A stretch of 64,000 bases of DNA from Candidatus Angelobacter sp. (GCA_035262465.1 DATFSU010000078.1:64013-128012), one strand, 5' to 3'; shown: positions 10,752 to 33,169, counted from the first letter of the stretch. Numbers and translations: made by a program. Notes: a model not told the origin generated them from the sequence alone.

Positions 10752-11141
10752 TCCTATTGACTCCTTAGTTAATTAGATCGGATTTCTACCGAAAAGTTTC
10801 TGTCTCGGCACAAGGCTCTCAGAGAGACAAATGCTAAGAATTGTTACGCTGACGGTAATCGTTCTTTATAAAGCGAAAGTGGCGAAGACGGCGCTGCAGA
10901 TTGTGAAGTGACGGGCAGAGGGACTTTAAGTTGGAAGGTGGGTGTCGGGACGACAGTGTGATAGGACAAAAGGGCCTGGTCACCGCCAACCGGCATGGCT
11001 TCTGTCATTCCGCCATGTGCAAGCGGATGCCGAAGCGCCTTAAGTACGTGTTTGATTCCATCCGATTCTTTTTGGGGTTTTTGTGCTCTAAACTGAGTGT
11101 AGAATCCCGCATAAGAGCAGAAAAACATTTGGCGCATCACA

Positions 11142-12164
11142 ATGAATAACGAATTAATTTTGAAGATCGTGAGAGCGTCGAGAATGAACGATGAGAAAAC
11201 GGTTTCGTCTGCCGTTCGGGAACTGATCCGCCGTGAACGGAAACAAGGGCATAACAACGTAGCGGACCAGCTTGAACGAGTATTGTCCCTCCGCGCTCCT
11301 CATTCATCGCAGCGGACGATTCGCGACACTGTTACTGCACCCGCTGTTCCTCGAAGCAAAGGAGACGGGAGCGCATTGGTTGACGTAAGGAAATGCTCAA
11401 AGTCTCTAGACGACATTGTATTACGCGAGGAAACCGCTGCAAAGATATGTCGCTTCCTTCAGGAATATAGCAAACAAGAACTCCTGAATCGTTATGGCCT
11501 CTTACCGAAACAAAAGCTGCTTTTTTTTGGTCCTCCGGGAAACGGCAAAACATACGCCGCTGAAGTAATTGCAAGTGAACTTGGCCTTCCCCTTTTTTAT
11601 GTGAGATTTGACGGACTAGTGGGATCGTATCTTGGGGAAACAGCTTCGAATTTGAGAAAAGTCTTCGAATTTGCGCACTCGGGACTAGGAATTCTTTTTT
11701 TTGATGAGTTTGACGCCATCGCGAAGAGACGAAACGACCCGAACGACGTCGGCGAATTGAAACGCGTGGTTAATAGCTTCTTACAGCTTCTGGACGGCTA
11801 TCAAGGGAAGAGCCCTATCATTGCAGCAACCAATCATGAAGACATTTTGGACTATGCGTTGTGGCGACGGTTCGATGATGCAGTCTTTTTTCCACTACCG
11901 AATGAAGTCGAGTTGCAGCGCTACATTAAACTTCGGTTGTCAGGCTTCAGCATTGAAGGATTCGCTTCTGAGGATGTAGCAAAATGGGTACTGGGATTTT
12001 CATTTGCTGTTGTTCAACGGATCGTGACCGATGCCATTAAGACGATGATTCTGACCGGAGAAGGCGTAATCTCACGGGGTATGTTGAGGGACGCAATTGA
12101 ACGCTCAAGATCTTCTGAAATACACAAATTAGATCGGATGTCAGAGCCAAATATCCACCGCTAG
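11142..12164 (+). CDS. ietA: AAA+ ATPase (classical AAA, IetA-like)
   Basis: 340 aa. Walker A is 'GPPGNGKT', Walker B is 'ILFFDEFD', and 'IIAATNHEDILDYALWRRF' matches sensor 1 and the arginine region. The stop TAG (12162-12164) abuts the ATG of the next gene. The gene symbol is by analogy only. Confidence 0.8.
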   Translation: MNNELILKIVRASRMNDEKTVSSAVRELIRRERKQGHNNVADQLERVLSLRAPHSSQRTIRDTVTAPAVPRSKGDGSALVDVRKCSKSLDDIVLREETAAKICRFLQEYSKQELLNRYGLLPKQKLLFFGPPGNGKTYAAEVIASELGLPLFYVRFDGLVGSYLGETASNLRKVFEFAHSGLGILFFDEFDAIAKRRNDPNDVGELKRVVNSFLQLLDGYQGKSPIIAATNHEDILDYALWRRFDDAVFFPLPNEVELQRYIKLRLSGFSIEGFASEDVAKWVLGFSFAVVQRIVTDAIKTMILTGEGVISRGMLRDAIERSRSSEIHKLDRMSEPNIHR

Positions 12165-14582
12165 ATGCCGCACGTACGCCTGCAACATTTTCGAGATGAA
12201 GTTCGTCACCCGCGTAGAGGCGGGCCCGAATTACCCGAGCGTAACCAGGGTAGCCATGGCCGAGAACTCAGAAGAGAGCTCCGGGCTGCTATTCGTGATT
12301 ATGAGCAACAGCGCGCCCGAAGGTCACCGAATCTGCCTGGGTTGCCTGCAACAATTCAGCTGTTGGTGAAACCAGCGACAACAGCGACTGGAAAGCCCTT
12401 AATTGATGGTTCTGATGTCCCCCGGGGATGGAACCTTGAAATTGTGGAGCAGAGAAGAGACGGCACACTAGTCGGATTGTCTGCCGATCCAAATCTTGCC
12501 GGGCTTGAAACAGCACTAGATAACTATCAGCACAACCGCCGCACCCAAACTGGCAGGCTAAAGCGCGGTACTCGGCCGGTTTTTGGGGTTGATGAGCTTC
12601 AGTCTCCGACCCGGCAGATCAGAATTGGGGATGAGCTTGCATTGGCTCAACTACAGCCCAATCTTCAATATTCTGTCGATGTGGAAATAGCTGCCGGAAG
12701 AGAACATCCAGAAGGAGCAGGACGCCGGGACGCTTTTTCAGGATACCTTCGCGCTGGCAGAGCAGAGATCGCAGGCAATGGAGCGCTTATAGGCGCTGAC
12801 TATGCAGCATACAGGGTTACTGCATCAGGAAGCCTAATCTCGGACATGCTCGACTATCATCCGTGGGTAATTTCGGTTGACTTGCCACCGGTGGTGGAGC
12901 GTGAGGGCTTTGAATTACGGAACATCGGGGAGCCCAATCTTCCAGACTTTCCGCCGCCTCGACCGGATGATCCAGTAGTTGGTGTTATTGACGGCGGAAT
13001 CATTCCAGAGCACCCTCTAATTCGGTTGGCCGTCCGCGACCAACATCATCTGAGCTTTATCTCTAACTCTATCCTCGATGAGGGGCAAGAGGGGCATGCT
13101 ACTGCGGTTATTAGCTTGGTAGCACTGGGGAGTCTACGTGATGCGTTGCTTCACCCACTTGATCCGCTTGTTCCCCCCGTAAGAGTTGCCTTGGGACGGC
13201 TGCTTAATGGCGACACTCAAATTCCAACGAATATAGTTGCTCATCGAAGTCTTATAGAAGTTGTGCCCTTGATGTTCGCTGAAAACGCATGCAGAATCTT
13301 TAACCATTCTATTGCGAGCCGTGGACTGCTTAATCGCAACAGGATGTCGCTCTGGGCCGAAGCAATTGATGCACTTGCATACGATGAAGGCAACGAAGGA
13401 TTTTTATTCATAATTTCAGCCGGCAATATTGATGGTCAGGTGTCGCCTCTAATGCCTCAAGTTAGAGCATGGTTGGACGAACCCGGCCATCCACAATACT
13501 TGCTGGAACAACACTGCCGCTTACGCAACCCCGCTCAAGCGATCAATGCGCTGACTGTGGGCTCATATGTGCCTCTTGCGGCAGTTCCCTTTCATAATGC
13601 CCAAGCGCTTGGATATCGCCAAGTCTCACCAACAGGTTCGCCATCGCCGTTTACGCGCACTGGACCTGGGTTCCTTGGCGAAATCAAACCGGAAGTGGTC
13701 GAGGAAGGCGGGAATTGGTATTTGGCTGATGGCAACCGCCTGATCGATCGTCCTCAGTACACGGATGTTGCTGTTGCCAACTCTGGGTTTGCCGCTGAAG
13801 GACACATGATCAAGTTTGTCACAGGGACAAGCTTCGCTGCGGCGCGAACGTCAAATTTGGCTGGCTTGATCCAAAGGGCAATTCCAAATGCAAGTCCGGA
13901 CCTTGTGCGCGCTCTTATTATCAATAGTGCAGATTGGCCTGGACGCCTCAATTCTATTGACGACACGGTTAGGCTGTGGGGATATGGGGTGCCCCAACTT
14001 GAGAGAGCCTTGGATGCCCAAGGGCCGCGAAGTCTCATCATCATAGAAGACGAAATCGAAATTGGGCATGCGCAATTCTTCAAAATTCCATTTCCTCATG
14101 ATCTTTTCGAAGACAACCCGGAAATAATGGTGCGGGTCTCTGTCACCTTAAGCTATCGTGCCCCTGTCAGAAAAACGAATCGTAAGTACCGAGGAACTGT
14201 ACTTGAGTGGAGGTTTTCAAAGCGGGACGAATCACTGGCCCAATTTGCCGGAAGATGCGAAACAATTCCGGCGGCGGAGGTACTCGAAGAAGAAATAGAA
14301 GAAGAACCTGAACTGGCTCCCGGGGATTGGAATTGGACTATCCGGACACGCCGAAGGACACGTGGCACCGCACAAAAAGACTGGTTTGAAGCGGCTGCTG
14401 ACCAATTTCCGGACGAACTCTACTTCGCATTGATAGGCCGTCGCGGATGGTTAAGCAGAGCGCAACAACAAGCAGGGTTCCGCCAACGATACGCTGTAGC
14501 CATTTCGCTCGAAGTCATAGGAGCCGCCATTCCAATCCACGAGCGCATAGAGGCCCTGGTTCGCGTTCCGATTAGAGCATAG
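12165..14582 (+). CDS. ietS: S8 (subtilisin-like) serine peptidase, 805 aa (IetS-like)
   Basis: The catalytic triad contexts are 'VGVIDGGI' (Asp), 'GHATAVISL' (His) and 'GTSFAAARTSNLAG' (Ser). There are about 270 aa of N-terminal and about 160 aa of C-terminal extension with no recognisable domain. Confidence 0.85.
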   Translation: MPHVRLQHFRDEVRHPRRGGPELPERNQGSHGRELRRELRAAIRDYEQQRARRSPNLPGLPATIQLLVKPATTATGKPLIDGSDVPRGWNLEIVEQRRDGTLVGLSADPNLAGLETALDNYQHNRRTQTGRLKRGTRPVFGVDELQSPTRQIRIGDELALAQLQPNLQYSVDVEIAAGREHPEGAGRRDAFSGYLRAGRAEIAGNGALIGADYAAYRVTASGSLISDMLDYHPWVISVDLPPVVEREGFELRNIGEPNLPDFPPPRPDDPVVGVIDGGIIPEHPLIRLAVRDQHHLSFISNSILDEGQEGHATAVISLVALGSLRDALLHPLDPLVPPVRVALGRLLNGDTQIPTNIVAHRSLIEVVPLMFAENACRIFNHSIASRGLLNRNRMSLWAEAIDALAYDEGNEGFLFIISAGNIDGQVSPLMPQVRAWLDEPGHPQYLLEQHCRLRNPAQAINALTVGSYVPLAAVPFHNAQALGYRQVSPTGSPSPFTRTGPGFLGEIKPEVVEEGGNWYLADGNRLIDRPQYTDVAVANSGFAAEGHMIKFVTGTSFAAARTSNLAGLIQRAIPNASPDLVRALIINSADWPGRLNSIDDTVRLWGYGVPQLERALDAQGPRSLIIIEDEIEIGHAQFFKIPFPHDLFEDNPEIMVRVSVTLSYRAPVRKTNRKYRGTVLEWRFSKRDESLAQFAGRCETIPAAEVLEEEIEEEPELAPGDWNWTIRTRRRTRGTAQKDWFEAAADQFPDELYFALIGRRGWLSRAQQQAGFRQRYAVAISLEVIGAAIPIHERIEALVRVPIRA

Positions 14583-14708
14583 ATGCCGGAACATAAAGTC
14601 TGGCGAATCGCTTTCTTTCGCTACGGCTAAAGACTTCTGCATGCAAATCTCGATCCTTCTCGACCTCCCCACGGGCTTCGTCGGCGCGCTTCCACCCTTG
14701 ACCGCCCT

Positions 14709-15527
14709 TCACTTGCTCAACTCCTGAATCACCTCCCTCAACTCGATCACCTCCAGCGGACAATCTTCCCAGTTATGGATCCAGCACACAATCAATTCAC
14801 ATCCATCCACCGGATGCATATGCGCGATGAAATTCCGGCTCTCGTACTCCAGCTCAATTCTCACCGGCTGCCATCGATTCGCTTCCACCTCCCGCATCGC
14901 CTCCACGTCCGGAAACCCGGTCTGAACCCGCGTGACGGAAAATCCCAGCTTCTCCGCCACCCCGCCAAACACAAACAGCACGCCCTGCTCGTTCGTCGGC
15001 GCATAGCTGAAGGGCAGGTGCATCGGCTGCCCATACACCGGACGATCCTGCCGCACCCTGGCATCGGCCGGCCGCAGCCTTGTCCGCGCGAACGTCCGTG
15101 TGCTCCCTGTTCTGCCCCGGCAGTGCTCCGCCACAACGTCCAGCACGTCTTTCCACTCGCCTTCCAGGCGCTGCTGGAGAGCATAATCCGACATCGCTGT
15201 CGCCACGTCCTTCCAGCTCTTGTACCGCCTGGCAAAAGGCCTAACGCTGTACCTTCCATGCAGTTCGTACTCGCTCATGGTCGGTACCTTCCCCAGTTTT
15301 CTTACCGTGGCGGCCCAGTCCGCAAACAGCGACTCCATCTTCACCAGGTACCCGCATCCCTGCCGTTCCAGCCCGCTGGCAGCCAGCAGGCGTGTGTGGT
15401 TGCCAAAGGTCTTGCGTATATCGTGCTTGGTCACATTCGCGTTTTTCACCAGCTCCATGACGCTCGGGGCGTGCCCCAGCCTCTCCGCACACGCTTTCAC
15501 CGCTGCAATGATTTCTTCTTTGCTCAT
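14709..15527 (-). CDS. Protein with two homing-endonuclease-associated (HNH_repeat-like) repeats and a C-terminal PD-(D/E)xK-like module
   Basis: The two repeats are 'EEIIAAVKACAERLGHAPSVMELVKNANVTKHDIRKTFGNHTRLLAASGL' and 'LFADWAATVRKLGKVPTMSEYELHGRYSVRPFARRYKSWKDVATAM'. The C-terminus has 'GFPDVEAM...VRIELEYESRNF'. Confidence 0.7.
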   Translation of the reverse strand: MSKEEIIAAVKACAERLGHAPSVMELVKNANVTKHDIRKTFGNHTRLLAASGLERQGCGYLVKMESLFADWAATVRKLGKVPTMSEYELHGRYSVRPFARRYKSWKDVATAMSDYALQQRLEGEWKDVLDVVAEHCRGRTGSTRTFARTRLRPADARVRQDRPVYGQPMHLPFSYAPTNEQGVLFVFGGVAEKLGFSVTRVQTGFPDVEAMREVEANRWQPVRIELEYESRNFIAHMHPVDGCELIVCWIHNWEDCPLEVIELREVIQELSK

Positions 15528-15535
15528 GCTTCCTC

Positions 15536-15566
15536 GTAAAATAAAAAAGCCACCCGCAGGTGGCTC
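15536..15566 (-). terminator. Rho-independent terminator after the receiver-like gene
   Basis: The stem is agccacc/ggtggct (15548-15565). On the minus strand it is followed by TTTTTTATTTT. Confidence 0.7.
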
Positions 15567-15612
15567 TTGTTCCTGGTTTTGCTTTCTTGGTTTTGCTGAT
15601 GGACGGAAGACC

Positions 15613-15993
15613 TTACCGGAAACCAGCAGCTCTGACCGGTTGTCGTGAATCTGCCTCCAGGGCCGCCTTTACCGCCTCCAGCAATACAGCTGGGCCATCC
15701 TGTGCGTTGACGTAAAAACTGGCTTGAGGAATGGGTGCCTGGCCGTGCCTGAGAATTGAAAGCAAGGGAGCAGAGCATACGGCGCGCAGGGCGAGAAGCA
15801 GGATCACTTTGTCCTTTTGCGGCATCGAATGACCCATCAAAATCAAATCGTAGTCATGATCCGCTGAACACGCCTCCATAGCCTCAGCAAAGCCGAACGC
15901 AGAAATGACAGCGTAGCCCGCCCTCTCCAGAAGCAGTTGCCGGGTAACCAGCAATGGCTTGTCGTACGAGATCGATAGGATGTGCTTCTTCAT
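15613..15993 (-). CDS. Single-domain receiver-like protein (probable pseudo-receiver)
   Basis: 126 aa from the ATG at 15993 (MKKHILSISYDKPLL...). It has a CheY-like pattern, but the phospho-acceptor position reads 'DLILMGHSMP' (Asp replaced by Gly). The longer 178-aa ORF has an implausible N-terminus. Confidence 0.6.
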   Translation of the reverse strand: MKKHILSISYDKPLLVTRQLLLERAGYAVISAFGFAEAMEACSADHDYDLILMGHSMPQKDKVILLLALRAVCSAPLLSILRHGQAPIPQASFYVNAQDGPAVLLEAVKAALEADSRQPVRAAGFR

Positions 15994-16684
15994 TGGGCCT
16001 CTGGGCTTCTCCTGCGGAGATGAATAGTAGGGTGTTCTCGTGCAACAGTAGGCCCAAAGGGAAGTAGCTGAATGCGTCAAGATGCGCCATCCATCGACGA
16101 CCTCTCGGTCGCACTCGAAGGCTTGGCTGGAAACGGCCGCCACGGACACACTTCAACTGCTGGATTTTCTCAAGGTGCCACGGCAGGCGGAGTCCCCGCG
16201 GACCGTAACAAAGTTGCAGGCCTTTTGGGATTCGTGGACCGCAGGCCCAAGGCCCCCGGCAAGCCCGCCTTTGGCTTGATGGGGCAAAGTAGCCCTCGCC
16301 TGCGACACCATTCCCCCGACGCCGCTCTCGGTTTTAGGGAGCTAATAGTTTGCCTCTTCTTTGCCCGAAAGTCAAGCGAAAACATGCGTTTTGGCTTCCA
16401 AAGTCCCGACCAACTGGCGTGACCTATATCACAGCCCAATTTGCCGAGTGCGCGTACCGTCATCGACAGGCGGAAAAAATGAAAGGGTTTGAGTCCCTTT
16501 CTCCTGCTAATGGCCCCCGAGCCGCGCTTGCTGCCCTGGCAGTATCGAACGCCGCCGGGGGCGTTTATCCATCCGCAAGAAAGTCCCTCCCCACCCCATT
16601 CTCTTTGGTTACACTGATTCGCTCCGACGGTATTCACAGAAGATAGCGGCATCGACCGACATGGAGCGATGGCGAGGAGGCGGT

Positions 16685-18034
16685 ATGAGCAGATGGGCGC
16701 GGTGTTGGTTTGCAGCAACGTTGTTATTGGCCTTGTTATTGACCTTCCGGTTGGCGATCGCACAGAACGGCCCGGGCCTTGCGGGACGATGGACCGTCAC
16801 GGTCGACATCAACGGAACCCCGCTGGACTGGCGAATGGATATGGCGCAGCAGGGCGACAAGATCTCGGGCGACTTTGCCGGCGACAAGTTTGAGGGCACG
16901 ATCAGCGGCAACAGCATGCATTTTCTGGCCAAGGATGAGCACGGCAGCACGTCAGAGGTGACGGCGACGATCGCGCAGGCGGCCAAGCAGCCGACCACTT
17001 TCAACGGCACGGTGAAGTTTACCGATGCTGATGATAAAGAACATCCAACCACGCACGCGATTGCGGGCAGGCTTACGCCGAAGCGTCCGGAGGGAGGACC
17101 GCAGCGGCACGAGTTCACGCCGACCGCGTTCTATCGTTCGTTTTCCGCGTTGAACCCGGTGGCGCTCACGGTGTGGCCGGGCGATACGATTCACGCCACG
17201 ACGGTCGATGCCGGAGGAGCGGACGAAAACGGCAAAGACCGCGTGGCGGGAGGAAATCCTGAGACCGGACCTTTCTACATCGAGACGGCTTTGCCCGGCG
17301 ACACGCTGGTGGTCCACCTGACGCGGCTGCGGCTGAACCGCGACTATGCCATCAGCGACGATGCGCTGGTCCCCAGGGCCATGACTCCCGATTTGGCGGT
17401 CAAGATGAAAGACGGCGGGAAGGATGTGCGCTGGCATCTGGATCGCGAGCACGGTACGGCGTCGCCGGAGAAGCCGGCTGAGCACCTCACGAGTTATTCA
17501 GTTCCGGTGCGGCCGATGCTGGGATGCATCGCGGCAGCGCCACCGCGCGCGGCCCAGGCTCCGCCGGGCGCAGGCGATTCCGGAGGCTGGGGCGGCAACA
17601 TGGACTTCAACGAGATCGTGGAAGGCGCGACGGTCTACCTGCCGGTTTCAACGCCCGGCGCAATGCTCTACGTGGGCGACGGACACGCGCTGCAGGGAGA
17701 TGGCGAGTTGAACGGAAATGCGCTGGAAACTTCGATGGACGTGGAGTTCACTGTGGATGTGATTCACAGCGAGCACAGGATTCCGGGCCCGCGGGTGGAG
17801 TCGGCGACGCACATCATGGCGATGGGACTCGGTGGCTCGCTGGACGACGCTTTTCGCGGAGCTACCGGCAACATGTCGCAATGGCTGATTGACACCTACG
17901 GGCTGACGCCTTCGGAGGTGGCGCAGGTGCTGGGCACGTCGGCTGAGTTCAAGGTGAGCGAGGTGGCTGACAGGAATGCGGGTATCGTGGTCAAGATTAA
18001 TAAGGAGAGATTGCAGGGATTGAAAAAGAAATGA
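16685..18034 (+). CDS. Acetamidase/formamidase-family amidohydrolase with signal peptide
   Basis: 'GPFYIETALPGDTLVVHLTRLRLNRDYA' and 'YVGDGHALQGDGELNGNALE' are typical of the FmdA/AmdA family. The ATG at 16685 is preceded by GAGGAGG. The signal-like N-terminus is 'MSRWARCWFAATLLLALLL'. Confidence 0.85.
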   Translation: MSRWARCWFAATLLLALLLTFRLAIAQNGPGLAGRWTVTVDINGTPLDWRMDMAQQGDKISGDFAGDKFEGTISGNSMHFLAKDEHGSTSEVTATIAQAAKQPTTFNGTVKFTDADDKEHPTTHAIAGRLTPKRPEGGPQRHEFTPTAFYRSFSALNPVALTVWPGDTIHATTVDAGGADENGKDRVAGGNPETGPFYIETALPGDTLVVHLTRLRLNRDYAISDDALVPRAMTPDLAVKMKDGGKDVRWHLDREHGTASPEKPAEHLTSYSVPVRPMLGCIAAAPPRAAQAPPGAGDSGGWGGNMDFNEIVEGATVYLPVSTPGAMLYVGDGHALQGDGELNGNALETSMDVEFTVDVIHSEHRIPGPRVESATHIMAMGLGGSLDDAFRGATGNMSQWLIDTYGLTPSEVAQVLGTSAEFKVSEVADRNAGIVVKINKERLQGLKKK

Positions 18035-18405
18035 TTCAACGCGGTTTTGGCAAGCCACGGTTGGTCCGCACAGGCAAGAGTGCCTGTGCCACAAAGGCAA
18101 TTCGGGTTCGGCCATAGGCGATCCATGATTCAACTAAGGTGAACGTGTCAGACGTTTTGGCTAAGTCTCGACTTTTGTCAGCGTTGGCAGACAGCGCTCA
18201 AGAACGCTAATCCAGGCATCTGGCGAAGGCCGGTTACCCTCCCCGTAAGTGCATGAACCTTAGGGGGGAAACGCTAATTGACAATTTCTGTCAACCGGAA
18301 CACAATCGGCCTACTCACGTTTTTCCCTGATCAGCGGCTGTTCCCCACCAGCCTCTTCGGAAAAGGTGCGCTTGAGTCAAATTCATTCCAGGACCTGCTA
18401 GAACT

Positions 18406-20124
18406 ATGTCGCAACGGTTAGGCGATCTTCTGGTCAAAGAGAAGATCATCACCCCGGACCAACTCGATAGAGCGCTGAAGGCGCAGCGGGAGCAGGGTCC
18501 GAATTCGCGTCTGGGATCAACGCTGGTTCACCTGGGTTTTGTAAGCGACGAGGAGGTCACGAACTTCCTCTCCCGCCAGTACGGCGTACCGGCCATTAAC
18601 CTGCAATATTTTGAGATCGACGCTTCGGTGGTGAAGCTGGTTCCGGAAGACACGGCCAAGCGCTACCAGATCCTGCCGCTGAGCCGGGTAGGCGCATCGC
18701 TAACGATTGCCATGGTGGATCCGACGAACGTTTTTGCCATGGACGATATCAAGTTCATGACCGGCTTCAACATTGAGCCGGTAGTGGCGAGCGAATCGGC
18801 GATCATGGACGCCATCGACAAGGCGTATGGCGGATCGTCGCAGAACGAGAACGTGGACGAACTGCTGGCGTCGATGGGCGAAGAAGCCGACGTCGAGCTG
18901 CAGGCCGACCAGGAAGAGATTGATCTCAGCGAGTTGGAGAAATCGGCCGACGAAGCCCCGATCGTCAAGCTGGTGAATATCGTTCTGAGCGATGCCGTAA
19001 AGCGCGGCGCCAGCGACATCCATATTGAACCGTACGAAAAAGAATACCGCGTGCGCTTCCGCATTGACGGCGTTCTGCAAAATATCATGTCCCCTCCGAT
19101 GAAGCTGAAGGATGCCATCACGAGCCGTATAAAAATTATGGCGAAGATGGATATATCAGAAAAACGGCTTCCGCAGGACGGCCGTATCATGTTGAAAATG
19201 CAGATCGGAGGCAAAAAAAAGCAGCTTGATTTTCGCGTCAACTGCCTGCCGACGCTCTGGGGTGAGAAGGTCGTTCTCCGGCTTCTGGACAAAGAAAACC
19301 TCCGGCTCGACATGACCAAGCTCGGCTTCGAGCCCGAGTCTCTGGAGAAATTTCAACGCGCCGTGCTGAAGCCCTACGGCATGGTGCTGGTTACGGGACC
19401 CACGGGATCGGGCAAAACCAACACTCTTTACTCTTCGGTCTCGCTCCTGAATAAGCCTGACACCAACATCATGACCGCCGAAGATCCAGTCGAATTCCAG
19501 TTGCACGGCGTAAACCAGGTGCAGATGAAGGAATCGATCGGCCTGAATTTCGCCGCGGCGCTGCGCGCTTTCCTGCGCCAGGATCCCAACGTGATCCTGG
19601 TCGGTGAGATCCGCGACTTCGAAACCGCGGAAATCGCCATCAAGGCCGCCCTCACCGGACACCTGGTGCTCTCTACCCTGCACACCAACGGCGCGCCGGA
19701 AACCATCAGCCGCCTGATGAACATGGGTATCGAACCCTTCCTGGTCGCAACGGCCGTGCACTTGATCTGCGCTCAGCGACTGATTCGACGGATCTGCGTT
19801 GAATGCCGCGAAGAAGTGCCCATGCCGCCGCAGGCGAAGGTGGAAGCCGGGTACACTGCGGAAGAAGCCAAGACCGTGAAGATTTTCAAAGGCCGCGGCT
19901 GCACCAACTGCAACGGCACCGGATACAAGGGCCGCGCCGGCCTCTATGAAGTAATGGAAGTGGACGATGAGATCCGCGAGTTGATTCTGATCGGCGCATC
20001 CGCCGTGGAATTGAAGAAGAAAGCGATTGAACGGGGCATGATCACGCTGCGGCGCAGCGGATTGACGAAAGTGAAAGACGGCGTGACCACGCTCGAAGAA
20101 GTCGCGCGTGAAACACTGCACTAG
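18406..20124 (+). CDS. pilB: Type IV pilus assembly ATPase PilB (GspE family)
   Basis: 572 aa. It has the N-terminal 'LGDLLVKEKIITPDQLDRAL' T2SSE_N domain, Walker A 'GPTGSGKT', and a tetracysteine motif 'CVECRE...CTNCNGTGY'. Confidence 0.95.
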   Translation: MSQRLGDLLVKEKIITPDQLDRALKAQREQGPNSRLGSTLVHLGFVSDEEVTNFLSRQYGVPAINLQYFEIDASVVKLVPEDTAKRYQILPLSRVGASLTIAMVDPTNVFAMDDIKFMTGFNIEPVVASESAIMDAIDKAYGGSSQNENVDELLASMGEEADVELQADQEEIDLSELEKSADEAPIVKLVNIVLSDAVKRGASDIHIEPYEKEYRVRFRIDGVLQNIMSPPMKLKDAITSRIKIMAKMDISEKRLPQDGRIMLKMQIGGKKKQLDFRVNCLPTLWGEKVVLRLLDKENLRLDMTKLGFEPESLEKFQRAVLKPYGMVLVTGPTGSGKTNTLYSSVSLLNKPDTNIMTAEDPVEFQLHGVNQVQMKESIGLNFAAALRAFLRQDPNVILVGEIRDFETAEIAIKAALTGHLVLSTLHTNGAPETISRLMNMGIEPFLVATAVHLICAQRLIRRICVECREEVPMPPQAKVEAGYTAEEAKTVKIFKGRGCTNCNGTGYKGRAGLYEVMEVDDEIRELILIGASAVELKKKAIERGMITLRRSGLTKVKDGVTTLEEVARETLH

Positions 20125-20128
20125 GGTG

Positions 20129-20202
20129 GGCTCTTGGCTATTGGCTCTTAGCCTTTAGTCAGAAAGCCTTAACCAAAAGCCAAAGGCCAAGAGCGAAGAG
20201 CC
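20129..20202. repeat. Imperfect roughly 30-bp-arm hairpin built from GGCTCTTGGC-like tandem units (pilB-pilT spacer)
   Basis: The left arm is ggctcttggctattggctcttagcctttag. The reverse complement of the right arm is ggctcttcgctcttggcctttggcttttgg. Confidence 0.7.
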
Positions 20203-20250
20203 GATGGCCAGGAAGTGCAAGCGGGAAGAATTCGGAGAGAACGGGGACAA

Positions 20251-21360
20251 ATGAATATTTCACTCAGTGATCTGTTGAAGAAGATGCTGGATATGGCAGG
20301 CTCAGACCTCCATATCACCACAAATTCCCCGCCGCAGGTGCGGGTCCACGGGCATTTGCAACCGCTGGATATGCCGCCGCTCACGCCGTCGGAGACTAAG
20401 CAACTGGCGTACAGCGTGCTCACCGACGCGCAGAAGCACCGCTTCGAGGAAAACATGGAGCTCGACTTCTCTTTCGGACTGAAGGGACTGGCCCGCTTCC
20501 GCGGCAACTGCTTCAACCAGCGCGGCGCCGTAGGCGCTGTTTATCGCGTGATTCCGTTTGAGATTAAAACCTTCCAGCAGCTGAATCTGCCGCAGGTGAT
20601 TTCCCGGCTGTGCGATAAGCCGCGCGGGCTGATTTTGGTGACCGGTCCGACCGGTTCCGGCAAGTCCACCACATTGGCGGCCATGCTCGACAAAATCAAC
20701 GTTGAGCGGCATGACCACATTATTACGATTGAGGATCCAATCGAATTTGTACACCAGAACAAGAGTTGCCTGGTGAACCAGCGCGAGGTGCATTCCGATA
20801 CGCAGTCATTCACCAACGCACTCCGCGCCGCGCTGCGTGAAGATCCTGACGTGGTGCTGATCGGCGAAATGCGCGACCTGGAGACGATTGAATCCGCTCT
20901 GCGCATCGCCGAAACCGGCCACCTGACCTTCGGCACGCTGCATACCAACTCTGCCGCGTCCACCATCAACCGTATTATTGACGTCTTTCCGTCACACCAG
21001 CAATCGCAGATTCGCGCGCAGCTCTCGCTGGTGCTGGAAGGGATTCTTTGCCAATCGCTGCTGCCGCGCGTTGGCGGGCAAGGCCGCGTCATGGCGATGG
21101 AAATCCTGGTTCCCAATGCCGCGGTGAGAAACCTGATCCGCGAAGACAAGATTCACCAGATTTATTCCGCAATGCAGTCCGGGCAGGAAAAGTTCGGCAT
21201 GCAAACGTTCAACCAGTCGCTGGCGACCCTTTATTTCCAGAAAGCCATCACCCTGGAGACCGCGTTGCAGCGTTCATCCATGCCGGATGAATTGCAGGAT
21301 ATGATCAACCGCGGCGTGCAGGCAACGAAAACAGCTGCAGCAACGCCGCAGCGCAGATAG
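20251..21360 (+). CDS. pilT: Twitching-motility (retraction) ATPase PilT
   Basis: 'MNISLSDLLKKMLDMAGSDLHI', Walker A 'GPTGSGKST', and 'AHLVFGTLHT'-type 'GHLTFGTLHTNSA' are present. The ATG at 20251 is preceded by GGAGAGAACGGGG. Confidence 0.95.
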   Translation: MNISLSDLLKKMLDMAGSDLHITTNSPPQVRVHGHLQPLDMPPLTPSETKQLAYSVLTDAQKHRFEENMELDFSFGLKGLARFRGNCFNQRGAVGAVYRVIPFEIKTFQQLNLPQVISRLCDKPRGLILVTGPTGSGKSTTLAAMLDKINVERHDHIITIEDPIEFVHQNKSCLVNQREVHSDTQSFTNALRAALREDPDVVLIGEMRDLETIESALRIAETGHLTFGTLHTNSAASTINRIIDVFPSHQQSQIRAQLSLVLEGILCQSLLPRVGGQGRVMAMEILVPNAAVRNLIREDKIHQIYSAMQSGQEKFGMQTFNQSLATLYFQKAITLETALQRSSMPDELQDMINRGVQATKTAAATPQRR

Positions 21361-21362
21361 TT

Positions 21363-21460
21363 GGTCAGTTTAAAACTGACAAACTATCTGGTATCAGCGT
21401 CTAGCGATTCGCTCGCGAATCGCGGGCCTTTAGGCAGACGGTTCATCGCGAAGCGATGAA
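21363..21460. repeat. About 100-nt three-hairpin intergenic repeat, copy 1 (inverted relative to copy 2 at 61948-62048)
   Basis: Sub-hairpins are gtcagttt/aaactgac, gcgattcgc/gcgaatcgc and ttcatcgc/gcgatgaa. The reverse complement of 21391-21460 aligns with 61948-62016 with only a few mismatches. Confidence 0.85.
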
Positions 21461-21549
21461 AAAAACAGAACGTTAGAGTGTTCTCCAACACTCCCCCTGG
21501 TTGGTTAGGCCGTAGTCGGTAGGCAAATAGGACGAGAGGAGTATTTGGT

Positions 21550-22758
21550 ATGCCGGTATTCACATTCACAGGCACCGATGCCCAGGGTAAGAAGATCGCC
21601 GGGGAGCGGTTGGCCGACAGTAAAGCCGCGGTCACCATGCAGTTGCGCCGCGAGCGCATTACTCCGGGCGCCATCAAGGAGAAGGGCAAAGAGTTCAATC
21701 TGCCTAAAATTGGCACCGGCAAAGTTCCCATCAAGGACCTGGCCGTCTTCTTCCGCCAGTTCTCCGTGATGATTGACGCCGGCCTGCCGCTGGTGCAGTG
21801 CTTGGAGATTCTGGCCGCCAACCAGGAAAATCTGTTCTTCCAGAAATGCCTCACTGGCGTCCGCACCAGCGTGGAAAGCGGCTCGACGCTCTCCAACGCC
21901 ATGCGCCAGTATCCCAAGATCTTTGACGACCTCACCACCAACATGATCGAGGCGGGTGAAGCCGGCGGTATTCTGGATACCATTCTGCAGCGCCTGGCCA
22001 CCTACGTGGAAAAAGCGGTGAAGTTGAAATCCGCGGTCAAATCGGCATTGATCTACCCGGTCTCCGTCATTTCGATTGCCGCCCTGGTGGTGGGATGCCT
22101 GCTTAAGTTCGTGGTGCCCATCTTCGCCAATATGTTCAACAGCATGGGCGTCGACCTGCCGCTGCCTACCAAGATCGTGATCGGGCTCAGTAATTTCGTC
22201 GGCCGGTTCTGGTGGCTTGGCTTCCTGATGCTCATCTTTATGGTGGTCGGCATCAAGTACATCCGCAAGGACCCCAAGGGCCGTTACATGCTCGATAAAT
22301 TCCTTCTGAACCTGCCGGTCCTCGGCGTGGTACTAAGGAAAATTGCGGTGGCGCGCTTCACGCGTACGTTGGGTACTCTGATCACCTCGGGCGTGCCGAT
22401 CCTGGAAGGCCTGGCCATTACCGCAAGAACATCAGGTAACGCCGTTCTAGAAGATGCGCTGATGAAAGTCCGCAAGGCCGTGGAAGAAGGCCGGACGATT
22501 GTAGATCCTCTCAAGGAGTGCGGCGTCTTTCCCAACATGGTGACGCAGATGATCGGCGTGGGTGAAGCCACCGGCGCCATGGATGCCATGCTCCAGAAGA
22601 TCGCCGATTTCTATGAGGATGAGGTCGATGCAGCGACCAAAGACATGTTGACGCTCCTGGAGCCGATCATGATCGGCTTTCTCGGCGTCGCCGTCGGCGG
22701 AATTGTGATTTCGTTGTACATGCCGCTGTTCTCGATGATCGCCAAGCTGTCCGGCTAG
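21550..22758 (+). CDS. pilC: Type IV pilus inner-membrane platform protein PilC (GspF family)
   Basis: 402 aa with two GspF repeats ('FFRQFSVMIDAGLPLVQCLE', 'FTRTLGTLITSGVPILEGL'). Confidence 0.95.
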   Translation: MPVFTFTGTDAQGKKIAGERLADSKAAVTMQLRRERITPGAIKEKGKEFNLPKIGTGKVPIKDLAVFFRQFSVMIDAGLPLVQCLEILAANQENLFFQKCLTGVRTSVESGSTLSNAMRQYPKIFDDLTTNMIEAGEAGGILDTILQRLATYVEKAVKLKSAVKSALIYPVSVISIAALVVGCLLKFVVPIFANMFNSMGVDLPLPTKIVIGLSNFVGRFWWLGFLMLIFMVVGIKYIRKDPKGRYMLDKFLLNLPVLGVVLRKIAVARFTRTLGTLITSGVPILEGLAITARTSGNAVLEDALMKVRKAVEEGRTIVDPLKECGVFPNMVTQMIGVGEATGAMDAMLQKIADFYEDEVDAATKDMLTLLEPIMIGFLGVAVGGIVISLYMPLFSMIAKLSG

Positions 22759-22856
22759 GAAACAGGCATCCGGCGCTACAACTTCTGACCCGCCTGCCAT
22801 AAAGCGGGCGGGTCTTTAACCGATGAACGAAAGACCGGCAACAGAGACCAGTAAAG

Positions 22857-24503
22857 ATGGGTGATATTCGGTTCAACGAGCGGGCATGGCTGGCATGGCT
22901 TGTTAAAGTCCGTGTCGTCATTATTTCGTTTCTGCTCGCTGTTGAGTTGATGATTGCGAAGCTCACGCCAAACAACGTCAATACCCGGCTTTTTATCACC
23001 GTCGTTCTCGTTTGGTACACCACCTCTGTCTTCTTTATTGTCCTGCACTCACTGTGGGAGGAATTCAAGCTCCAGGCCATCGTCCAGATCTTTACTGACC
23101 TGGCTTTTGCCACCGGCGTGGTCTACGTCACCGGCGGCATCGATACCTTTTTTAACTTTCTTTATCCGCTGGTCATCATCGTGGCCAGTATTCTGCTGCC
23201 TCGTTACTGGGCTTACCTGACGGCCGCAGTCTCGTTCATCTGTTTCGGTGCGGTGCTCGAACTCAGCTACTTTGAGCGCATCCCCACCTTCCAGGTCACG
23301 GCGCGCGGCGATCTGAAATCGCTGCAGGTCGTCATTCTGGTCAATTTCTGCGCCTATCTGGCGGTGGCTCATCTCGCCAGCGCGCTGGCCGCCAAGCTCC
23401 GTCAGGCCGGCATCGAACTGCGCGACAAGAGCGGCGAACTGCTCAGCCTCCAGGCGCTCCATGAGAACGTGATTCACTCCATTCGCAGCGGCCTGATCAC
23501 CGCCGATCTGGAGGGCCGGGTCACGTTGATGAATTCTCCGGGCCAGAAGCTGCTGGAACGCACAGCCTCCTCGGTTTACGGGCGGCACATCTCGGACCTG
23601 TTTGTTGACCATCTTCCCAATATTGACGCCGGCCAATGCGAAGTTCGCTGTCTTACCCCCGCAGGAAAAGAAAAAACCTTTGACGTGAACGTGACCGCCC
23701 TGATCGTTCCCGAACAGGGCACCATCGGATACGTTTATACCTTTGAGGACCGCACTGAACTGCGCCGGTTGGAGCAGGAAGTGCGCATGCGCGACCGCCT
23801 GGCCGCCGTGGGACGCCTGGCCGCCGGCATCGCCCACGAGATTCGCAATCCCCTGGCTTCGATTGCCGGCTCGATCAACGTGCTCTCACAGGTAACGCCA
23901 TTCAACGAAGAACAAAAGACGCTGGTCAACATCATCACGCGCGAATCAACCCGGCTCAATTCCATCATCTCCGACTTCCTGGTCTATTCCCGGGAAAAGA
24001 GTTTCAAGTTCACGCGGACCGATCTCCTGCCCTTGCTGAACGACGCTCTCGTGTTGCTGGCCAATCGTTCCCAGGGCGGCGAGTTGAACATCGTCCGCGA
24101 ATATGCCGTAGCTGACGCTTTTGCGGCGATTGACGCCGACCGCATCAAACAGGTCTTCTGGAACCTGCTGGAAAATGCCGTGCGCGCGATGGGCGGCAAA
24201 GGCACCATCACTGTTTCTGTCCGCACGGCCGGCGACTTTCTCCGCATCGGAGTTCGCGACACCGGCCCCGGCATTCCACCACAACTGGCGGAAAAGATCT
24301 TCGAACCGTTCCAGTCGCAGTTTGATGGCGGCACCGGGCTGGGCCTGGCGATTGTGTATCAGATTGTGCGGGCGCACGGGGCCAAGATATTCGTCCAGTC
24401 AGCGCCGGGCCGGGGCGCGGAGTTCATTCTGGAGATCCTGCACGCCAAAGCCGCCGCCGAGCCCGAGCCCGCGCCGCTGAGTACGGAGGTTTCGCATGGC
24501 TAG
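22857..24503 (+). CDS. pilS: Membrane sensor histidine kinase (PilS-like)
   Basis: It has a multi-TM N-terminus, a PAS-like region, the H-box 'AHEIRNPLASI', and G-boxes 'DTGPGI' and 'GGTGLGLAIV'. The symbol is assigned by synteny with pilB/T/C/R. Confidence 0.85.
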   Translation: MGDIRFNERAWLAWLVKVRVVIISFLLAVELMIAKLTPNNVNTRLFITVVLVWYTTSVFFIVLHSLWEEFKLQAIVQIFTDLAFATGVVYVTGGIDTFFNFLYPLVIIVASILLPRYWAYLTAAVSFICFGAVLELSYFERIPTFQVTARGDLKSLQVVILVNFCAYLAVAHLASALAAKLRQAGIELRDKSGELLSLQALHENVIHSIRSGLITADLEGRVTLMNSPGQKLLERTASSVYGRHISDLFVDHLPNIDAGQCEVRCLTPAGKEKTFDVNVTALIVPEQGTIGYVYTFEDRTELRRLEQEVRMRDRLAAVGRLAAGIAHEIRNPLASIAGSINVLSQVTPFNEEQKTLVNIITRESTRLNSIISDFLVYSREKSFKFTRTDLLPLLNDALVLLANRSQGGELNIVREYAVADAFAAIDADRIKQVFWNLLENAVRAMGGKGTITVSVRTAGDFLRIGVRDTGPGIPPQLAEKIFEPFQSQFDGGTGLGLAIVYQIVRAHGAKIFVQSAPGRGAEFILEILHAKAAAEPEPAPLSTEVSHG

Positions 24504-25869
24504 CATTCTGGTATGCGATGACCAGCGCTCGATCTGCGAGATGCTCGATATCTCGCTCCGCAAGGATGGCCACCGCGTGGAAACCGTCAACGGCGGTGAG
24601 GCCGCAAAGAAGAAACTCAGCTCCGCCAATTACGAGCTTCTGATCACCGACATCAAGATGCCGCAGACTGACGGCATTGAGGTGCTCCGCTACGCGCGCC
24701 AGTCGTCGCCGGACACCTCGGTCATCCTCATCACTGCCGTGGAAGATTACGAGGCGGCAGTGCAGGCGGTTAAGGGCGGCGCCTTCGATTACATTCACAA
24801 GGGCCCGGGCCTGCTCGAGGAGCTGAAGGTCTCTGTCGGTCGCGCGCTGGAAACCCTGGCGTTACAGCAGGAGAATTTCGCTCTCAAGCGCGATGCCGCC
24901 AGCCGCAACTCGCTCGATAACATCGTCGGCGGCAGCCCGGCAGTAGAGAAATTGAAAGGCACGATCCGCACCGTGGCCCCCACCGGCAGCACGGTGCTGA
25001 TCTATGGCGAAAGCGGCACGGGAAAGGAGCTGGTGGCGCGGGCTGTCCACGCCTGTTCGCCGCGCTCCTCTGACCCGTTTGTCTCCATCAATTGCGGCGC
25101 ATTTCCTGAAACCCTTCTGGAAAGCGAGCTCTTCGGCTACGTGAAAGGCGCATTTACCGGCGCCAGCCAGAACAAACGCGGGCTGTTCGAAGTGGCCAAC
25201 GGGGGAACGATCTTTCTGGATGAGATCGGGGAGATGAGCGTCTCCATGCAGGTAAAGCTGCTGCGTGTCCTGCAGGAGCGCACCATTCGCGCCGTAGGCG
25301 GCACACAGGAAGCCCCGATCGACGTGCGCGTGATCGCCGCCACCAATAAAGACCTGCGCCAGATGGTGGCAGCCGGCAGCTTCCGCGAAGACCTTTATTA
25401 TCGCGTCAGCGTGATTCCGATCCAGGTGCCGCCCTTGCGCGAACGACGCGATGACGTGGAGCTTCTGGCCAATCATTTCCTCAAGAAATACGCCAACGCG
25501 GCGCAAAAGAGCATTCTGCGCATCCGTCCGGAATCGCTCGAAGCGCTCAGGAGTTTCGATTGGCCCGGCAACGTGCGGCAGCTGGAAAACACCATCGAAC
25601 GCGCCGTGGCCATGGAGACAAGCGATGTGCTGAAGGTGGACCTGGAAGCCGATCATCCGCCGGCAAGGGCGGCCAACGGTTCCGGCAATGGCCACCATCC
25701 CAACGTCCCGGCTGACGGCATGGATTTCGAAAAATATGTCGCCGACATTGAACGGTCGTTGATCGAATCCGCCCTGGAGCAATCCGGCGGCGTGCAGACC
25801 CGCGCAGCCGAGCTGCTGAAAGTCTCTTACCGCTCGTTCCGCCACTTGCTGAAGAAATACGATATCTAG
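24496..25869 (+). CDS. pilR: Sigma-54-dependent response regulator (PilR-like)
   Basis: The receiver has 'LLITDIKMP', Walker A is 'GESGTGKE', GAFTGA is intact ('GYVKGAFTGAS'), and there is a C-terminal Fis-type HTH. It overlaps the kinase gene by 8 nt. Confidence 0.9.
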   Translation: MASILVCDDQRSICEMLDISLRKDGHRVETVNGGEAAKKKLSSANYELLITDIKMPQTDGIEVLRYARQSSPDTSVILITAVEDYEAAVQAVKGGAFDYIHKGPGLLEELKVSVGRALETLALQQENFALKRDAASRNSLDNIVGGSPAVEKLKGTIRTVAPTGSTVLIYGESGTGKELVARAVHACSPRSSDPFVSINCGAFPETLLESELFGYVKGAFTGASQNKRGLFEVANGGTIFLDEIGEMSVSMQVKLLRVLQERTIRAVGGTQEAPIDVRVIAATNKDLRQMVAAGSFREDLYYRVSVIPIQVPPLRERRDDVELLANHFLKKYANAAQKSILRIRPESLEALRSFDWPGNVRQLENTIERAVAMETSDVLKVDLEADHPPARAANGSGNGHHPNVPADGMDFEKYVADIERSLIESALEQSGGVQTRAAELLKVSYRSFRHLLKKYDI

Positions 25870-32167: not shown

Positions 32168-33169
32168 TTGAACAACACCGACGATGGCATTTTTGATGAT
32201 AATTTGGGGTTAGGCGACGAAGTCCAAACCTTTTCCGATTTCATTCAGCAACCGGCTCTACATGCATGGGTAGCAGCACATGTGAGACGCGAATTCCCGC
32301 GCCTTGCCGCCGGGATCATCGTTTACGATCCTGCCTCTAAGCAATTTCAAGGCATGGCCATGCCGAATTCATCGCCTACACCAAATGAATTTTGGGAGAT
32401 CCACCACTTTTCCCTAGTGGCTGCGTACAAGAGAATTCGCGAAGAAGGCCGAAGGCTTGTTGGGTTTTTCTCGACTCGATATCCTGGAAAGCCGCCTACG
32501 CCAGAACAAATCAACGGTACGTGGATAGACCGGGCCTATTGGATTGTTTCCACCAACCCTATGGGGGATGCAACCGATAGCATCGCCTATTTTCATGGCG
32601 ATTCGAAGACATATAAGCCCCTAACCGCTAAATTTAGTGTCAATCCCAATACGCAAATATTCGCGACTACGACCCAGGTAATCGGCTCTGTTGTCCAAAC
32701 CGCAAATGGAGAGCTAATGCGATGGCTGCAGAAGCATCCCCATGATCTGCTGCAAGTTCATCCTGGCACGTTTGAGCAGATTATTGCTGAGCTATTCCGA
32801 GATCAAGGATTTGACGTAGAAGTCTTAGGTTCTTGGAATCAGCCGGACGGAGGAATTGACATTATTGCTGTACGCAAGAACACTCTGGCAGGCACGTTTC
32901 GTGTTGGAATTCAATGCAAACGATTTGTAAAGACAGGTGTGGTTAAAGCTGATCTAGTTTGGGCGCTTGAGGGACGCATGGATAAGTTCCGCCTCAACAA
33001 AGGGGTACTAGCCACCACGGCACACTTCGAGAAATCTGTGCTTGCAGATTTGAAAGATCATCTTTGGCGAATCGAACTCCGCGATTTTGAAGCCTTGACG
33101 CAAGACCTGCAATCTTGGGGGCGATATGAGCATGACTCCACGGGGTTGTGGCTTCCAAAACGACCTTGA
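32168..33169 (+). CDS. Mrr_cat-type restriction endonuclease domain protein with N-terminal domain of unknown function
   Basis: The C-terminal half has 'FEQIIAELFRDQGFDVEVLG...DGGIDIIAV...VGIQCKRF', matching the PD-(D/E)xK Mrr core. The N-terminal roughly 190 aa are unassigned. It has a TTG start and sits in a visibly AT-richer stretch. Confidence 0.75.
   Translation: MNNTDDGIFDDNLGLGDEVQTFSDFIQQPALHAWVAAHVRREFPRLAAGIIVYDPASKQFQGMAMPNSSPTPNEFWEIHHFSLVAAYKRIREEGRRLVGFFSTRYPGKPPTPEQINGTWIDRAYWIVSTNPMGDATDSIAYFHGDSKTYKPLTAKFSVNPNTQIFATTTQVIGSVVQTANGELMRWLQKHPHDLLQVHPGTFEQIIAELFRDQGFDVEVLGSWNQPDGGIDIIAVRKNTLAGTFRVGIQCKRFVKTGVVKADLVWALEGRMDKFRLNKGVLATTAHFEKSVLADLKDHLWRIELRDFEALTQDLQSWGRYEHDSTGLWLPKRP

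Follow-up and report, generated by a model that had tools for sequence, protein, structure and literature searches.

The Locus and Its Gene Products

Within the window, by which we mean the entire 64-kb stretch of DNA that was analyzed, an ATPase gene (ietA) is directly followed by a subtilase gene (ietS), and a convergent gene, here called gene3, lies beyond them (Table 1). The flanking genes are of housekeeping type. ORF calling recovered ietA and ietS exactly where an earlier note on this DNA had placed them, and the junction sequence (...ccgcTAGATGccg) confirms its claim that the two abut, with the IetA stop codon at 12162-12164 and the IetS ATG at 12165. Because stop and start adjoin in this way, we infer that one transcript probably serves both genes, with their translation coupled. 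A sigma-70 consensus search of the presumed ietA promoter region gave no match, and the operon as a whole yielded neither a promoter nor a terminator consensus, which counts against the interpretation that we favor below.

Table 1. Features of the ietAS locus, numbered from the first nucleotide of the window
Feature	Position	Strand	Description
Presumed ietA promoter and 5′ leader	10909..11141	+	Insert-specific upstream region (blastn against the closest relative, L047; sequence reading)
ietA	11142..12164	+	340-aa classical-clade AAA+ ATPase; presumed antitoxin/regulator
ietA/ietS junction	12162..12167	+	TAG followed by ATG, no spacer; sequence reading
ietS	12165..14582	+	805-aa cytoplasmic S8 subtilase; presumed toxin/effector
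AT-richer foreign segment	10909..14708	.	ietAS cassette by composition (GC and GC3)
gene3	14709..15527	-	Convergent, 272 aa; two HNH_repeat helical units and an uncatalogued C-terminal domain
126-aa ORF	15613..15993	-	Weakly receiver-like; inside the block absent from L047
Block missing from the FecR–FmdA junction of the closest relative	10909..16166	.	ietA, ietS, gene3 and the 126-aa ORF

IetA might start at 11142 or at 11184, the latter being chosen by some gene callers, and the former is supported by the conservation of residues 1-11 in at least 80% of 16 IetA sequences. The protein matches the Pfam AAA model (E=4.3e-31), and its best relatives of solved structure are Cdc48/p97. The Walker motifs and the Asp/His/Ser triad, which the earlier note had described as intact, are also conserved. 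Across the 16 IetA sequences, including that of the Agrobacterium plasmid pTiC58, Walker A (GPPGNGKT, residues 130-137), Walker B (ILFFDEFD, D188/E189), the pore loop (Y163-L-G165), sensor-1 N231 and R242/R243 are all invariant or at least 80% identical; D276, H311, N421 and S556 of IetS are invariant in an alignment of 24 homologues. ATPase and protease activities are both needed in the IetAS systems that have been tested.

IetS begins with an N-terminal region specific to the family (aa 1-~265), followed by a catalytic domain (aa ~269-620) and a C-terminal region (aa ~620-800) that contains an invariant G-T-x-Q-K-D-W motif at residues 734-740. Pfam Peptidase_S8 matches aa 269-589 (E=5.2e-32). 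In the AF2 model (pLDDT 77.8, pTM 0.70) the C-terminal part is predicted to form a β-rich domain, and the top Foldseek matches are ProN-Tk-SP, KP-43, SubHal, Kex2 and PCSK9, among which Tk-SP, KP-43 and the kexins are subtilases that presumably carry a C-terminal β domain as well.

This resemblance to pro-subtilisins, together with the housekeeping-type neighbors, might be expected of a housekeeping protease served by a dedicated AAA+ chaperone, for example one that helps an extracellular subtilase to mature or to be secreted. However, the N-terminus of IetS is highly charged and, on reading the sequence, has no hydrophobic signal peptide. The pair is also foreign in composition, patchy and context-independent in distribution, and missing from the closest relative, and its specific profile matches point elsewhere. 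This explanation is thus disfavored, and we consider it extremely improbable.

Assignment to the IetAS Family

The earlier note had assigned the pair to IetAS, and both PADLOC profiles and BLASTP comparison with the pTiC58 pair agree. The PADLOC IetA profile PDLC02196 matches aa 4-328 (profile positions 5-327 of 374; E=1.2e-92), and the IetS profile PDLC02198 matches aa 91-780 (positions 81-759 of 795; E=1.3e-63), extending well past the generic S8 domain. PHROG 3757 matches IetA (E=2.7e-98), and a PHROG match to IetS spans aa 103-800; these full-length matches show the pair to be carried by phages and prophages as well. The N- and C-terminal extensions of the subtilase, which had been described as lacking a recognizable domain, are therefore covered by family profiles and are hallmarks of IetS proteins. 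The domain families named in the earlier note (PF00004-type AAA, Peptidase_S8 and, for gene3, PF18780) were all matched.

The top NCBIfam matches are likewise 'anti-phage ATPase IteA' (NF042959) and 'peptidase IteS' (NF042956), but both fall short of the equivalog cut-offs (255.4 versus 510 bits and 95.7 versus 900 bits, respectively), which counts against the assignment. The pair is therefore best classed as a divergent subfamily and not as an equivalog of the curated NCBIfam clade, so its function must be inferred rather than transferred. The clade is small: it counts some 35 close IetS relatives (identity of 38% or higher) and three full-length 50%-identity representatives that score above 950 bits, within a family whose representatives at E<=1e-30 number at least 1035. 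IetS homologues are also present in 480 plasmid records.

Several known systems can be compared with the locus. The anti-phage ietAS system reportedly goes back to Gao et al. 2020, and later work reportedly tested its homologues in B. cereus m1293 and E. coli ECOR52. It has the same two-gene architecture of an AAA+ ATPase and an S8 protease, and the PADLOC IetA and IetS profiles match near full length, PDLC02198 being the best IetS sub-model. The founding toxin-antitoxin pair, from the Agrobacterium Ti plasmid pTiC58 (NC_003065.3, 97873-98859 and 98863-101373), has the same gene order and tight spacing, and its ATPase motifs match. Its IetA is 40% identical to ours over 257 aa (E=1e-62) and its IetS 25% identical over 574 aa (E=3e-29; aa 244-782 of the window protein). 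The IetS homology covers the catalytic and C-terminal domains and, weakly, the extreme N-terminus; the N-terminal ~240 aa barely align pairwise. Because of this 25% identity, and because the plasmid homologues are only ~26-32% identical, function is extrapolated across a large distance, which also counts against our interpretation. The pTiC58 pair resides on a conjugative plasmid, whereas the window pair is chromosomal in a member of the Acidobacteriota.

The TA132/133 AAA-ATPase/subtilisin-like pair of Mycoplasma (PMC8562856) is likewise chromosomal, with the antitoxin gene first, a zero intergenic gap, proteins of similar size (353 and 757 aa) and signs of horizontal transfer, but it belongs to a very different phylum, and the likeness is one of described features. 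The ietHAS system (Liu-DS4; PMC13069673) has the IetA and IetS core in common with the window pair but requires an additional SNF2 helicase gene. No helicase domain, SNF2-type or other, turned up in the genes called up to 10 kb on either side of the pair, so the locus does not qualify as ietHAS. It is an ordinary additional member of an already known defense/toxin-antitoxin family.

Probable Horizontal Acquisition of the Pair

An AT-rich segment at ~10.8-14.7 kb had been noticed by eye, and computation bears it out. The GC content of the ietAS segment is 0.5105, whereas other non-overlapping 3.8-kb intervals have a mean of 0.576 (sd 0.019, minimum 0.518); the lowest value over all 3.8-kb intervals, 0.503, belongs to one that starts at 10701 and overlaps the segment. 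The GC3 values of IetA and IetS are 0.466 and 0.463, respectively, compared with a mean of 0.665 (sd 0.078) for the 46 ORFs of at least 150 aa in the window. The dip in GC stops at the IetS stop codon.

Wherever the sequence of a related locus extends upstream, the gene immediately before IetS is IetA. Their tight coupling is conserved, with spacings of -1 to 31 nt in 13 of 14 relatives, and the 71-nt gap of the remaining one (L019) reflects a tblastn match that begins at IetS residue 22. These loci lie in unrelated contexts: in one (L042) the pair adjoins two integrases along with a phage capsid gene, and in two others (L044 and L045) it stands alone amid housekeeping genes. In L047, the closest relative found, FecR and FmdA are 582 bp apart, compared with 5.7 kb in the window. 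By blastn, the two sequences are collinear up to 10908 and again from 16596, and tblastn found none of ietA, ietS, gene3 and the 126-aa ORF in L047. Because it is empty in this relative, the FecR–FmdA site is variable. The intergenic site as a whole is a recombination/insertion hot spot. Foreign composition, unrelated contexts elsewhere and this empty site together support horizontal acquisition of the pair, as the earlier note had suggested. Two observations count against so simple a picture. The difference from L047 exceeds the AT-rich islet, taking in gene3 and the 126-aa ORF, and a single-step event involving all four genes is conceivable. In addition, no flanking repeats, tRNA or integrase marking an insertion were found within the 64-kb window.

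The joint absence of the four genes from L047, and the existence of three-gene variants such as ietHAS (PMC13069673), could mean that IetA, IetS and gene3, with or without the receiver-like ORF, arrived together as parts of a single multi-component system. Yet gene3 homologues were not detectable in any of the related IetAS loci compared, no third gene recurs in the flanks of 17 such loci, and gene3 has no PADLOC match. The gene3 family numbers at least 984 homologues, against the ~35 close IetS relatives, and its members occur in other contexts without IetAS. Moreover, gene3 is convergent and therefore outside the operon, and its composition (GC 0.596, GC3 0.751 versus 0.46 for the pair) is native-like. 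A joint system is thus largely refuted and very improbable. The earlier note had left open a third component or an independent gene, and by these comparisons gene3 is the latter, an independent accessory gene. We consider it very likely that 10909-14708 came in by horizontal transfer as a self-contained IetAS module of two genes, to which gene3 does not belong.

A different question is whether such a module defends its host at all. According to PMC13069673 (citing Yamamoto 2009) and PMC8562856, IetAS was originally described as a plasmid-stability toxin-antitoxin system. Together with the homologues on plasmids and the relative that adjoins integrases, this would suit a pair that merely stabilizes its carrier element by post-segregational killing, with no anti-phage role in this host. 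However, the window pair is alone in a chromosome without mobile-element genes, homologues do protect against phage, and defense and addiction are compatible with each other. A role in addiction only is therefore distinctly unlikely.

Proposed Mechanism and Significance

In characterized systems, ietA acts as the antitoxin and defense needs protease activity, but the mechanism is not established (PMC13069673). Protection works through abortive infection, which a phage gene sets off when expressed (10.1101/2022.08.27.505566), and in the Mycoplasma pair deletion of just the ATPase gene is lethal (PMC8562856). By homology, IetS would be a growth-arresting protease that IetA holds harmless through its ATPase activity. 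This balance would be upset either by a trigger that a phage encodes or by the module being lost, and the freed protease would arrest or kill the infected cell; the same imbalance could give post-segregational stabilization of the carrying element. The intact substrate-translocating pore loop (Y-L-G) of IetA and the family-specific N-terminal region of IetS beside its catalytic domain suggest that IetS is probably a direct target of IetA, which would bind, remodel or unfold it.

With this locus, the range of IetAS comes to include Acidobacteriota (soil bacteria of the 'Candidatus Angelobacter' type), where it represents a small divergent clade, and offers a clean natural comparison of a filled and an empty site. 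Divergent members with conserved motifs also help to define what is essential to IetAS. Candidates are the IetA pore loop, the IetS G-T-x-Q-K-D-W motif and the IetS N-terminal region, which suggest testable contacts between ATPase and protease. Otherwise, this is a routine defense-system annotation.

The Neighboring Gene

The two homing-endonuclease-associated repeats reported earlier for gene3 are indeed present, as two PF18780 HNH_repeat units (E=4.4e-19), its only Pfam match. An HNH homing endonuclease was considered and rejected, since neither Pfam nor NCBIfam finds an HNH domain. Plasmid matches of gene3 to haloarchaeal 'HNH endonuclease' genes cover only the repeat region (aa 1-~115).

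Searched alone against Pfam and NCBIfam, the C-terminal domain gave no match. Its order in the AF2 model (pLDDT 81.8) is α-β-β-β-α-β-β-α, and E180, P206-D207, E225-x-E227, H236-x-H238, C248 and C256 are invariant in the family. The PD-(D/E)xK core has the order α-β-β-β-α-β, in which α1 carries an E, β2 opens with a D and β3 holds the (D/E)xK. The topology of gene3 fits this core (helix 181-190, strands 196-201, 208-215 and 218-229, helix 232-235, strand 245-250), and so do E180, P206-D207 and E225-x-E227, but the Lys is missing, and comparison of full-length gene3 with PDB sequence profiles and folds gave no significant match.

It is conceivable, though unlikely, that gene3 represents an uncatalogued family of ~1000 or more members in which HNH_repeat DNA-binding units are joined to a restriction-endonuclease-like domain of a new kind, marked by an invariant H-x-H...C...C site. 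Under this proposal, the family might consist of selfish or homing-type nucleases, and insertion hot spots such as FecR–FmdA might be seeded by them; the ietAS cassette would have landed at one of these, and the neighboring ~400-bp segment X would have flipped between close relatives, perhaps redirecting a promoter. The gene3 family is found largely in Acidobacteriota-type soil and peat metagenomes.

Identity of the ATPase-protease pair

The two genes ietA and ietS constitute a true yet divergent member of the IetAS family, as judged from profile matches, homology to the founding toxin-antitoxin pair of the Agrobacterium Ti plasmid pTiC58, and conserved residues. All three reading frames described in the earlier note were recovered at its coordinates (see table), with the ietA stop codon directly abutting the ietS start (...ccgcTAG/ATGccg). 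Pfam assigns an AAA domain to the first product (E=4.3e-31) and Peptidase_S8 to the second (aa 269-589, E=5.2e-32). Moreover, PADLOC models cover almost the whole of each protein, PDLC02196 for IetA (aa 4-328, E=1.2e-92) and PDLC02198 for IetS (aa 91-780, E=1.3e-63). NCBIfam ranks 'anti-phage ATPase IteA' and 'anti-phage peptidase IteS' first, at scores far below the curated equivalog cut-offs (255 against 510 bits and 96 against 900 bits, respectively). Compared with the pTiC58 pair (NC_003065.3; ATP-binding protein 97873-98859, S8 peptidase 98863-101373), IetA shares 40% identity across 257 aa (E=1e-62). IetS shares 25% identity across 574 aa that take in the catalytic and C-terminal domains, with the extreme N-terminus also matching weakly. 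The IetAS-like identity proposed in the earlier note is borne out by the PADLOC matches and this homology, and the HMM searches it suggested all gave matches (AAA, Peptidase_S8 and both PADLOC models, as well as HNH_repeat in the neighbouring gene).

The Asp/His/Ser triad that the earlier note described as intact is so, and the Walker motifs that it read are conserved. Residues D276, H311, N421 and S556 of IetS do not vary among 24 homologues, while the Walker A, Y-L-G pore loop, Walker B, sensor-1 Asn and RRFD arginines of IetA are kept (invariant or at least 80% identical) in 14 relatives and pTiC58. The nearest solved relatives of IetA are Cdc48/p97 (E about 1e-50).

Features of the window discussed in the text
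Feature	Position	Strand	Size	Basis
ietA (AAA+ ATPase)	11142-12164	+	340 aa	ORF call
ietS (S8 subtilase)	12165-14582	+	805 aa	ORF call
gene3	14709-15527	-	272 aa	ORF call
126-aa ORF	15613-15993 (longer reading to 16149)	-	126 aa	Weak, sub-threshold receiver match (PF00072, E=0.009)
Segment X (intergenic)	16167-16560		~400 bp	Alignment with L047
Mrr_cat ORF	32168-33169	+	333 aa	Restriction-endonuclease domain (PF04471, E=1e-17)

The earlier note found no recognisable domain in the extensions of IetS on either side of the catalytic domain. This does not hold, because the IetS-family profiles of both PADLOC and PHROGs (phrog_3964, aa 103-800, E=2.9e-75) span the two extensions. Among 1.84 billion cluster representatives, a profile search picked out at least 1035 proteins at E<=1e-30, many of them matching positions ~2-803, and IetS homologues bear the newer Pfam families PF27210 (labelled 'Y4kK_2nd' in one gene-context table) and PF27160. 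Hence, both extensions are standard features of the IetS family.

In an AlphaFold2 model of IetS (pLDDT 77.8, pTM 0.70), α/β modules come before the catalytic domain, and aa ~620-800 fold into a β-rich domain. The best solved Foldseek matches of the model are ProN-Tk-SP, KP-43, SubHal, Kex2, PCSK9 and furin, several of which have a β-sandwich or P-domain at the C-terminus. The top match, ProN-Tk-SP, still has its propeptide attached, and the N-terminal region of IetS might be a propeptide equivalent, the comparison being one of whole folds. By sequence, the PDB contains no IetS structure (nothing at E<=1e-3), which marks the S8 domain as highly divergent. The IetS N-terminus reads as highly charged and without a signal peptide, which makes IetS a cytoplasmic protease.

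A possible mode of action

Characterised ietAS systems act by abortive infection, and a single SPbeta gene is toxic, when expressed, solely to cells carrying ietAS (10.1101/2022.08.27.505566). Defence depends on the protease activity of IetS, ietA behaves like an antitoxin (no construct that carries a mutated ietA can be obtained), and how the system counters phage 'remains unknown' (PMC13069673). For an AAA-ATPase/subtilase pair of Mycoplasma, deletion of just the ATPase gene kills the cell (PMC8562856). By analogy, we infer that the pair in the window works like these systems. The AAA+ protein IetA would restrain the cytoplasmic protease IetS in an ATP-dependent manner, and proteolysis, unleashed when a phage gives a cue or the module is lost, would arrest the cell. 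The conserved pore loop suggests that IetA may engage IetS directly.

Composition and insertion site

The AT-richer islet that the earlier note had judged by eye is real once computed, and the profile is not flat. The GC content of positions 10909-14708 is 0.5105, compared with 0.576±0.019 (minimum 0.518) for non-overlapping 3.8-kb windows, and the 3.8-kb window with the lowest value of all begins at 10701 (0.503) and overlaps this stretch. In ietA and ietS, GC3 is 0.466 and 0.463, respectively, against 0.665±0.078 in the 46 ORFs of the window that reach 150 aa or more. The dip ends at the ietS stop codon, and gene3, the convergent neighbour, has a native-like GC3 of 0.751.

The closest relative found (L047) has a FecR protein 89% identical to that of the window, and flanking DNA about 86-91% identical. 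Collinear homology stops at 10908 and restarts at 16596, and the gap between FecR and FmdA is 582 bp in L047. The stretch 10909-16166, with ietA, ietS, gene3 and the 126-aa ORF, is missing from L047 as a whole. The difference in GC3 (0.46 for ietAS, 0.75 for gene3) argues that ietAS was acquired separately from gene3, and a single event bringing in all four genes is unlikely. In the more distant loci L048 and L049, the pil cluster is inverted relative to FecR and different small genes occupy the junction. Another contig lacks ietAS and has, immediately 5' of the FmdA-PilB-PilT-PilC array, a gene3 homologue together with an HTH gene and part of a Y1 transposase. Taken together, the empty site, the inversions and this contig mark the FecR-FmdA junction as a hot spot at which DNA is rearranged and inserted. 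No tRNA gene, a potential integration site, occurs in the window, no integrase marking the ietAS insertion was found, repeats flanking it near 10.9, 14.6 and 16.2 kb are limited to chance-level matches of at most 8 nt, and related loci share no conserved cassette-end sequences.

The inverted block of L048 and L049, which are Angelobacter-like, corresponds to PilB-PilT-PilC-PilS-PilR (window 16661-25869) and is reversed relative to FecR/SAM_HAT. One inversion breakpoint coincides with the FecR-proximal junction where the window has ietAS, and FmdA is undetectable in both loci.

Elsewhere, genomic contexts vary among the 31 related IetS loci that we collected from species-representative genomes and metagenomes, and an IetA gene lies immediately 5' of IetS in all those having upstream DNA. 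The pair is accompanied by two integrases and a phage capsid gene in L042, by peptidase genes on one side and a two-component system on the other in L044, and by SurA-like and ribose-5-phosphate isomerase genes in L045. Homologues of gene3, FecR, SAM_HAT, the 126-aa ORF and FmdA are absent from all 31 loci, and clustering of flanking ORFs in the 17 loci compared yielded no recurring neighbour except among near-identical contigs. With its foreign composition, unrelated contexts elsewhere and the empty site in L047, the pair sits at a variable site and was probably acquired horizontally. The observation and main interpretation of the earlier note were correct. The system is of a known kind, IetAS, and is a new, divergent representative in an under-sampled phylum at a variable chromosomal hot spot. 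The finding is useful for annotation and for comparison, but not surprising.

Seven peat or soil metagenome contigs (L026-L030, L032, L033) contain only frameshifted C-terminal IetS pieces (aa ~503-803, 60-78% identity per piece; for example, L026 10001-10882) and have no IetA gene 5' of them. The toxin gene seems to be in decay there.

The neighbouring gene and segment X

The earlier note left gene3 as either a third component or an independent gene. Only the latter reading stands, as gene3 homologues occur in 0 of 31 related IetS loci when checked for co-occurrence, its family is far larger, and its contexts differ. The family has at least 984 database matches, many full-length at 50-69% identity, mostly from soil/peat metagenomes and 'Candidatus Angelobacter' MAGs, and often adjoining PIN/PhdYeFM pairs or Y1 (IS200-like) transposase genes.

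The protein comprises two helical HNH_repeat units (Pfam, E=4.4e-19) followed by an α-β-β-β-α-β-β-α domain modelled at pLDDT about 88-93 across most of aa 181-271; an HNH catalytic domain is absent. Invariant residues are E180, P206-D207, E225-x-E227, H236-x-H238, C248 and C256. The order of elements and acidic residues in the C-terminal domain fits a PD-(D/E)xK core, lacking the Lys, but this assignment is unsupported by fold, PDB-profile, Pfam or NCBIfam matches. The domain alone has zero Pfam or NCBIfam matches, a single-sequence PDB search with gene3 stayed at chance level (best E=0.0068), and a profile search of PDB gave no match. Foldseek with the whole model found none in PDB at E<=1e-3, a search probably hurt by flexible linkers, and in BFVD gave marginal matches (about 113 columns) to uncharacterised phage proteins. 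Gene3 may act as a nuclease, either selfish/homing or in defence, or as a regulator that binds DNA.

The spacer 5' of gene3 (15528-15612) contains a bidirectional terminator-like hairpin at 15545-15568. A 44-nt stretch of this spacer recurs at 91% identity on another contig (L041 153-195), immediately before a gene3 homologue of 66% identity, so gene3 seems to move together with an upstream element of its own. In L037, a gene3 homologue and a 51%-identical homologue of the 126-aa ORF are 3 kb apart.

Promoter and terminator scans gave no more sites than shuffled sequence, none usefully positioned for an ietAS operon. The spacer between ietS and gene3 forms no stable structure (z=+0.65), and Rfam matches neither the 10.6-16.8 kb region nor segment X. 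Segment X is kept in L047 (78-85% identity) but reversed relative to the flanking FecR and FmdA. Its minus strand carries a stable GC-rich hairpin and intrinsic terminator (-42.9 kcal/mol, z=-3.1), followed by a promoter-like site (TTGACT...TATTAG) read by eye and unreported by the consensus promoter scan. This site faces the 126-aa ORF in the window and FmdA in L047.

About 18 kb from ietAS, the Mrr_cat ORF has a similarly foreign composition (GC 0.489, GC3 0.473) and appears to be another singleton of defence type gained by horizontal transfer.
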